The notes beneath the pieces are model-generated. The model did not search any database, was not told the origin of the DNA, and worked only from the letters and a program-made list of their open reading frames with translations. DNA of 713 nucleotides from Escherichia coli (GTDB lineage Bacteria; Pseudomonadota; Gammaproteobacteria; Enterobacterales; Enterobacteriaceae): NCBI RefSeq assembly GCF_003334305.1, contig NZ_QOWS01000071.1. One strand, written 5' to 3'. Of the stretch, positions 1 through 713 are shown piece after piece (the stretch's first letter is position 1; each line of letters opens with the position of its first letter). The translations under genes were made by a program, and so were the position numbers.

Positions 1-464
1 TTGTCATGCAGCTCCACCGATTTTGAGAACGACAGCGACTTCCGTCCCAGCCGTGCCAGGTGCTGCCTCAGATTCAGGTTATGCCGCTCAATTCGCTGCG
101 TATATCGCTTGCTGATTACGTGCAGCTTTCCCTTCAGGCGGGATTCATACAGCGGCCAGCCATCCGTCATCCATATCACCACGTCAAAGGGTGACAGCAG
201 GCTCATAAGACGCCCCAGCGTCGCCATAGTGCGTTCACCGAATACGTGCGCAACAACCGTCTTCCGGAGACTGTCATACGCGTAAAACAGCCAGCGCTGG
301 CGCGATTTAGCCCCGACATAGCCCCACTGTTCGTCCATTTCCGCGCAGACGATGACGTCACTGCCCGGCTGTATGCGCGAGGTTACCGACTGCGGCCTGA
401 GTTTTTTAAGTGACGTAAAATCGTGTTGAGGCCAACGCCCATAATGCGGGCAGTTACCCGGCAT
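1..464 (-). CDS. insB: InsB (the B' catalytic part of IS1 transposase), 3'-truncated by the window edge. Annotated ATG at 462-464; 154 complete codons in the window; last complete codon at 3-5 (GAC, Asp); positions 1-2 are the first two bases of the next codon.
   Basis: Manual minus-strand translation from the ATG at 462-464: [154 protein letters not shown], with no in-frame stop. This matches IS1 InsB as I recall it; full InsB is 167 aa, so about 13 codons plus the stop lie outside the window. Confidence 0.9.
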
Positions 465-658
465 CCAACGCCATTCATGGCCATATCAATGATTTTCTGG
501 TGCGTACCGGGTTGAGAAGCGGTGTAAGTGAACTGCAGTTGCCATGTTTTACGGCAGTGAGAGCAGAGATAGCGCTGATGTCCGGCGGTGCTTTTGCCGT
601 TACGCACCACCCCGTCAGTAGCTGAACAGGAGGGACAGCTGATAGAAACAGAAGCCAC
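1..658 (-). CDS. InsAB' transposase: the fusion product of the insA and insB' frames via the -1 frameshift at 401-407, 3'-partial in this window
   Basis: Inference from the intact insA frame, the intact A6C motif and the uninterrupted insB frame downstream, combined with the established IS1 expression mechanism. The fusion is not directly observable from sequence. Confidence 0.8.
383..658 (-). CDS. insA: InsA, the IS1 DNA-binding protein and transposition inhibitor/repressor, 91 aa, GTG start, TAA stop at 383-385
   Basis: Matches the six-frame [38 protein letters not shown]...[18 protein letters not shown]. It has an N-terminal CxxC...CxxC zinc-finger-like motif (C8, C11, C32, C35) and a C-terminal helix-turn-helix-like segment. 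The protein matches IS1 InsA as I recall it, at the expected IS1 coordinates 56-331. Confidence 0.95.
401..407 (-). other. Programmed -1 ribosomal frameshift slippery heptamer A6C (AAAAAAC) that fuses InsA to the InsB' frame
   Basis: Seen: plus-strand gtttttt at 401-407 reads AAAAAAC on the minus strand, within CAC TTA AAA AAC TCA near the end of insA. insA codons begin at positions congruent to 1 mod 3 and insB codons at positions congruent to 2 mod 3, so a -1 slip moves from the insA frame into the insB frame. Established knowledge: the IS1 transposase InsAB' is made by -1 frameshifting at this A6C run. Confidence 0.9.
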
Positions 659-669: not shown

Positions 670-689
670 AAAAACACCATCATACACTA

Positions 690-702
690 AATCAGTAAGT
701 TG
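690..702 (+). promoter_or_regulatory. Candidate IHF binding site inside IRL
   Basis: Seen: plus-strand AATCAGTAAGTTG matches the IHF consensus WATCAANNNNTTR with one mismatch (G for A at position 6). Established knowledge: IHF binds the ends of IS1. Site is predicted from the motif only. Confidence 0.4.
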
Positions 703-713
703 GCAGCATCACC
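691..713 (-). repeat. IS1 left terminal inverted repeat (IRL), about 23 bp
   Basis: Window 691-713 is atcagtaagttggcagcatcacc; its reverse complement GGTGATGCTGCCAACTTACTGAT is the canonical IS1 end. The matching IRR is outside the window, so the inverted pairing cannot be checked here. Confidence 0.9.

Follow-up and report, generated by a model that had tools for sequence, protein, structure and literature searches.

Does a 713-nucleotide stretch of an Escherichia coli contig (RefSeq assembly GCF_003334305.1, contig NZ_QOWS01000071.1), here called the window, hold an intact copy of the recoding signal through which the insertion sequence IS1 makes its transposase? The original prediction placed a canonical, unaltered A6C -1 frameshift site at positions 401-407. 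It further held that this heptamer sets the ratio of the inhibitor InsA to the transposase InsAB', and that changes in its A run raise transposase output strongly. The A6C site of IS1 has been a textbook example of recoding since 1989-1991. Our analysis adds nothing new to its biology: the window is an ordinary IS1A-type copy of IS1, and its A6C site was already known and is still under experimental characterisation (2025 studies). We hold with high confidence that the window is IS1 of the IS1A type on the minus strand, and that the bases running from 407 to 401 are its programmed -1 ribosomal frameshift site, acting through the mechanism set out below.

Identity of the element and its left end

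The window corresponds to positions 1-713 of the 768-bp IS1, read on the reverse strand. It is collinear with IS1A of E. coli K-12 MG1655 (NC_000913.3, 19796-20563), and the two differ at 2 of 713 bases with no indel. The reverse complement of the window begins with GGTGATGCTGCCAACTTACTGAT, the left terminal inverted repeat (IRL; 691..713, minus strand), which is identical to the end of K-12 IS1A and makes window edge 713 the exact left end of IS1. The right terminal inverted repeat (IRR, …AAGTTGGAGTCATTACC) lies beyond the window, as does the rest of the final 55 bp of the element. In a complete copy that is 100% identical over the window (L001), the IRL pairs with an IRR that matches it at 22 of the outer 35 positions. 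This copy spans the full 768 bp, is flanked by an 8-bp target duplication, CAAACTCT, and interrupts a leucine-rich-repeat gene; the exact variant found in the window has therefore transposed as a whole element.

Base-by-base comparison places both differences from K-12 IS1A at 452..456 (minus strand), and neither falls within 40 nt of the heptamer. The first, at window 456 (IS1 258, C>T), replaces alanine 69 with valine in InsA and InsAB', inside the HTH domain (HTH_Tnp_IS1, residues 43-86). The second, at window 452 (IS1 262, A>T), leaves the InsA protein unchanged, and the same change occurs in four other copies that we inspected (L003, L004, L015 and L020, described below). In all other respects considered, the window resembles K-12 IS1A and IS1E: 711 of 713 bases, the IRL, the length of insA, A6C at IS1 307-313, its register, the insA stop and the B' frame agree. 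We also considered IS1R of plasmid R100 as the identity of the window and rejected it, given that 8 of 713 bases differ and that the R100 copy is labelled as IS1B type.

IS1 is abundant in this species. A megablast comparison with 5,426 complete E. coli genomes found it in 4,971, at a median of 11 places per genome, and numerous copies, on chromosomes and plasmids alike, match the window at 100% identity. Sampling the match ranking at even intervals gave 4 fully identical rows out of 60, which suggests that roughly 6-7% of matching records hold the window's exact variant. One identical copy carries the RefSeq annotation "IS1-like element IS1A family transposase", with a CDS joined from two pieces and the remark "programmed frameshift".

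A consensus scan returned a single sigma-70 promoter-like site in the window, CTGCCA-16-TATGAT (679..706, minus strand; 9 of 12 consensus positions), which overlaps the IRL. The weak IS1 promoter, PIS1, is located partly in the IRL according to the literature, and we infer from its sequence and position that the site at 679..706 may be PIS1.

The heptamer and the two reading frames it joins

The plus strand reads GTTTTTT at 401-407, so the heptamer AAAAAAC belongs to the minus strand, where it runs from 407 to 401; the predicted coordinates were exact, and only the strand had been left unsaid. The T run at 402-407 is exactly 6 bases long and is the sole homopolymer of 6 or more across the window. 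AAAAAAC occurs once in the 713 bases, both strands counted. In dinucleotide-preserving shuffles its mean count was 0.09, and because 16 of 200 shuffles contained at least one copy, its presence by itself is mildly unexpected at most.

The non-random character of the heptamer comes from its placement rather than its presence. It lies 251 nt downstream of the GTG start of insA, where the codons of the 0 frame are UUA AAA AAC, and it thus stands in the X_XXY_YYZ register as A_AAA_AAC. It also falls within the 103-nt stretch (IS1 229-331) in which the -1 frame is already open and insA has yet to stop. With the strand, this overlap and one register fixed, a rough estimate puts the chance expectation of such a heptamer at about 0.002. 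Overall, the window holds a single exact A6C match at 401..407 (IS1 307-313, minus strand), inside the insA / B'-insB overlap, in register and ahead of the insA stop, at the same place as in the ten IS1 variants compared below.

The upstream frame is insA (383..658, minus strand; GTG at 658-656, TAA at 385-383; 91 codons), whose product serves as the InsA repressor and as the N-terminal, DNA-binding portion of the transposase. It was recognised from the list of open reading frames, from Pfam and from an exact 91-aa protein on record as IS1 InsA, and its product carries the zinc-ribbon and HTH DNA-binding domains expected of InsA (PF03811, E = 1.5e-20; PF12759, E = 1e-27). Its UAA stop (383..385, minus strand) lies 15 nt, or 5 codons, downstream of the heptamer and, as translation of the 0 frame and of the -1 fusion shows, is bypassed by a -1 shift. 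The downstream frame, B'-insB (1..485, minus strand), is in the -1 frame relative to insA. Frame analysis shows that it is open from IS1 229 (window 485), overlaps the end of insA and stays free of stops until it runs off the edge at window 1, with its last 13 codons and stop outside the window. It encodes a DDE catalytic domain (PF03400, DDE_Tnp_IS1; E = 4.5e-69) that matches model positions 1-118 of 131, clipped by the window end.

A conceptual -1 slip, with one A re-read after Lys AAA and translation resuming at window 404, joins the two frames into a fusion of 219 aa within the window and 232 aa in the complete element, with the junction ...HLK-K-LRPQ.... This fusion is the full-length IS1 transposase. 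It matches NCBIfam NF033558 (transpos_IS1) at 241.5 bits over model positions 1-199 of 199, in one stretch that spans the junction; InsA alone covers positions 1-81 only and, at 89.4 bits, stays under the cut-off of 100. Pfam likewise finds Zn_ribbon_InsA (residues 1-36), HTH_Tnp_IS1 (43-86) and DDE_Tnp_IS1 (102-219) in order along the fusion. The 232-aa form with a Lys-Lys junction has an exact record as "IS1-like element IS1A family transposase" (UniRef Q5QJK2_SALTM), and no protein on record has the Lys-Asn junction of a tandem slip in which Asn-tRNA is retained. This difference between the records reflects annotation convention and is not evidence on the molecular mechanism.

These tests of element identity and geometry bear out the assignment of 401-407 as the IS1 -1 frameshift site. 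For annotation, the two overlapping frames are best called as a single gene for the IS1 transposase, expressed by programmed -1 frameshifting, rather than as a pseudogene or two separate genes.

Alternatively, the heptamer could be functionally moot, in a copy that is truncated or otherwise dead and from which the IRR and the last 13 codons may be absent. The window covers only IS1 1-713 of 768, some IS1 matches in E. coli records are partial (for example, over 34-68% of the query), and four of the six K-12 IS1 copies are reported in the literature to be essentially immobile. Set against this, the IRL, insA and the stop-free B' frame are all intact within the window, the same 713 bases are found in complete elements with target duplications, and the cut may be a mere window boundary or a contig end. 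We consider a dead copy unlikely, and an intact heptamer is in any case no proof of transposition competence, because the window ends 55 bp before the right end of IS1.

Recoding mechanism, context of the site and related systems

In the reading that we prefer, most ribosomes on insA would read UUA AAA AAC and five more codons, stop at UAA and release the 91-aa InsA repressor. In a rare event, the tRNA-Lys on AAA would slip back by one base along the A run; the next codon would then be AAA, and the B'-insB frame would be read past the insA stop to give the InsAB' transposase (232 aa in the complete element). InsA, which has the same DNA-binding domains as the transposase, would repress the IS1 promoter and compete at the ends of the element, and a low rate of slipping would for these reasons keep transposition rare.

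Much of this mechanism agrees with published experiments. Transposition studies from 2025 describe the insA product as a repressor of the weak IS1 promoter and find that insB' has no independent translation, and experiments on IS1A and IS1E from the same year show that InsAB' needs the -1 shift at A6C. These two elements have the consensus sequence in common. Frameshifting was measured at about 1.6% with lacZ reporters in chromosomal IS1E, as compared with about 2% in earlier plasmid work, and reviews count IS1 among the IS families that rely on frameshifting and point to it as a case in which an inefficient motif keeps the transposase scarce.

[quoted passage not shown] The window would be expected to behave likewise, because the sequence around its site is identical to that of the elements tested. 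The site is indeed unaltered, as predicted: the 79 nt at IS1 266-344 are the same in the window and in K-12 IS1A. The window's copy thus appears to carry the normal, tightly repressed configuration.

The further claim, that an in-frame change in the A run raises transposase output, holds with a qualification. Rewriting AAAAAAC in frame as GAAGAAAC (GA2GA3C; one inserted base and one substitution) raised transposase about 735-fold and transposition about 900-fold in the published work. The same rewrite abolishes InsA, and supplying InsA in trans largely undoes the rise. The effect of the in-frame motif is therefore not one of frameshift efficiency alone, since those mutants also lose InsA.

A different route to InsAB' would be transcriptional slippage, in which RNA polymerase adds an A at the A6/T6 run and brings a minority of mRNAs into frame. 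The Lys-Lys junction is expected from either route, so the sequence by itself does not separate transcriptional from ribosomal slippage. For transcriptional slippage to be productive, however, the run must usually be longer (about 9 or more), and mutagenesis reportedly placed the essential bases at adenines 2-4, the tRNA-Lys codon. Homopolymeric A/T runs can trigger transcriptional slippage and some IS elements use it, but IS1 is absent from a survey of the process, and the literature on IS1 assigns its recoding to ribosomal -1 frameshifting. We judge it very improbable that transcriptional slippage is the main source of InsAB', and retain ribosomal frameshifting as the mechanism.

Stimulatory elements were sought on both sides of the heptamer. 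The 91 nt from just before it fold with a minimum free energy of -26.8 kcal/mol (z = -0.35 against shuffles), and the 61 nt after it with -19.4 kcal/mol (z = +0.33); by this folding, which leaves out pseudoknots, neither stretch is more stable than shuffled sequence. Likewise, an Rfam search of the window returned no family at E <= 1, inspection by eye of the 30 nt upstream of the heptamer showed no Shine-Dalgarno-like motif, and the two substitutions of the variant IS1X3, at IS1 318 and 336, share no base pair in the predicted fold and so lend it no covariation support. On these predictions, the site looks like a bare slippery heptamer without the stimulator typical of efficient -1 signals, and this fits its low efficiency. 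Downstream structures were reportedly dispensable in the original IS1 frameshift work, in which the insA stop codon is said to modulate efficiency. A 2025 paper proposes a "pseudoknot" at the IS1 site; the proposal is neither supported nor contradicted by our predicted folds, which come from a tool that leaves pseudoknots out.

Ten IS1 variants were compared for conservation: the window, K-12 IS1A, IS1B, IS1F, IS1X3 and five unnamed variants with 97.3, 96.2, 94.4, 91.0 and 90.7% identity to the window. All ten have the heptamer at IS1 307-313, in the same register and within a 91-codon insA. In nine of them the -1 fusion reads through without a stop; the remaining variant (91.0%) is interrupted by a single internal stop and carries a pseudogene annotation. 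Substitutions adjoin the heptamer at IS1 298, 300, 301, 304 and 318. Across the ten variants, 109 of 713 columns (15%) are variable, and seven invariant columns would arise by chance with a probability of about 0.31. At identities of 90% and above, the conservation of the heptamer is thus consistent with constraint but statistically not decisive. A plasmid search for diverged IS1, covering at least 5,000 records, is uninformative on deep conservation because the matches listed were all at 95% identity or more, and the 90-97% variants from E. coli were used instead.

IS1R of R100, which PGAP labels 'IS1B family', shares the architecture of the window and has A6C at 307. Three of the 8 bases at which it differs from the window (IS1 298, 301 and 304) lie within 9 nt upstream of the heptamer, and all three changes are synonymous in insA, with ILRHL kept. 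The original IS1 frameshift work reportedly used this element.

Among other recoding systems, dnaX (A_AAA_AAG) and the IS3 family (IS911, IS150 and IS3) likewise place an X_XXY_YYZ heptamer on Lys AAA codons, and in IS3 as in IS1 the shift fuses a DNA-binding ORF with the catalytic ORF that follows it in the -1 frame. The signals of dnaX and the IS3 family shift efficiently and are typically aided by a stem-loop or pseudoknot downstream, by a Shine-Dalgarno-like stimulator upstream, or by both. In contrast, the heptamer in the window ends in C and is followed by no extra-stable fold, and the efficiency of IS1 is reported as about 2%.

Length of the A run across E. coli genomes

The original prediction had suggested counting the A run across IS1 copies, and we extended this check to all complete E. 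coli genomes. Each probe, a run A(n) with 40 nt of flanking sequence on either side, was matched at 99% identity or more; the resulting counts are per record rather than per copy, and miss variants with IS1B-type flanks. A6 is the norm, with 6,461 records against 121 for A5 and about 13 for A7 (15 records matched the A7 context, 13 of them at 100% over its full length). The survey shows that counting the A run is a sensible check.

It also bears on whether the run in the window might itself be a homopolymer sequencing or assembly error that hides a true A5 or A7. Such variants do occur in finished assemblies, and several carry a second indel typical of long-read error. A6 is overwhelmingly the commonest length, however; the window aligns with K-12 IS1A without indels and agrees at 100% with many independent records, and an error is likelier to depart from A6 than to restore the canonical length. 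We regard a miscounted run as the most remote of the alternatives weighed here, and take the A6 of the window as real.

Nine A7 copies and one A5 copy were inspected individually. Six of the nine A7 copies have further indels. In L002 (plasmid pYJ3-a), 11 bp are deleted between GGGGCTA direct repeats in insB (IS1 ~389-409), and the sole A5 copy inspected, L003 (pAA-EA11 of the O104:H4 strain 2011C-3493), has the same deletion; both are annotated as frameshifted pseudogenes. L004 (NZ_CP034589.1, 2818387-2819086) has a second homopolymer insertion, T4 to T5, 14 nt upstream, and L016, L017 and L019 have single-base indels. The extra indels in these A7 copies suggest dead copies or homopolymer errors of long reads, and a dead IS1 lineage with the 11-bp deletion may account for many of the 121 A5 records.

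PGAP assigns a 'programmed frameshift' and a normal protein accession to three A7 copies with a second nearby indel (L004, L017 and L019), from whose DNA one -1 shift at the run would fail to give the labelled protein. An intact A6C is therefore not guaranteed by the label.

The other three of the nine A7 copies are clean, 769-bp elements with an uninterrupted 232-aa InsA-InsB ORF that is annotated as a plain CDS. They are found in strain 162.2 (L015; NZ_CP059929.1, 483478-484176), as an insertion in treA with the 9-bp duplication CGCAATCAG; in strain E138 (L018, of IS1X4 type; NZ_AP022351.1, 4363775-4364473), with the 9-bp duplication CGATTTGGG; and in strain C10 (L020; NZ_CP195940.1, 2042774-2043472). 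The records that hold them have 23 to 40 or more IS1 places as compared with a median of 10-11, a comparison confounded by size-biased sampling. Judged from their sequences, the clean A7 copies may be either naturally occurring alleles with constitutive transposase production or artefacts of homopolymer assembly.

The population count of run-length variants, with rare in-frame A7 alleles present in finished genomes, is a mildly useful by-product of this analysis. It is conceivable, though we think it doubtful, that the A run serves as a mutational on/off switch in natural populations, in which A7 alleles would make the fusion and no separate InsA. Provided that these alleles are genuine and not sequencing errors, bursts of IS1 expansion could start from them.
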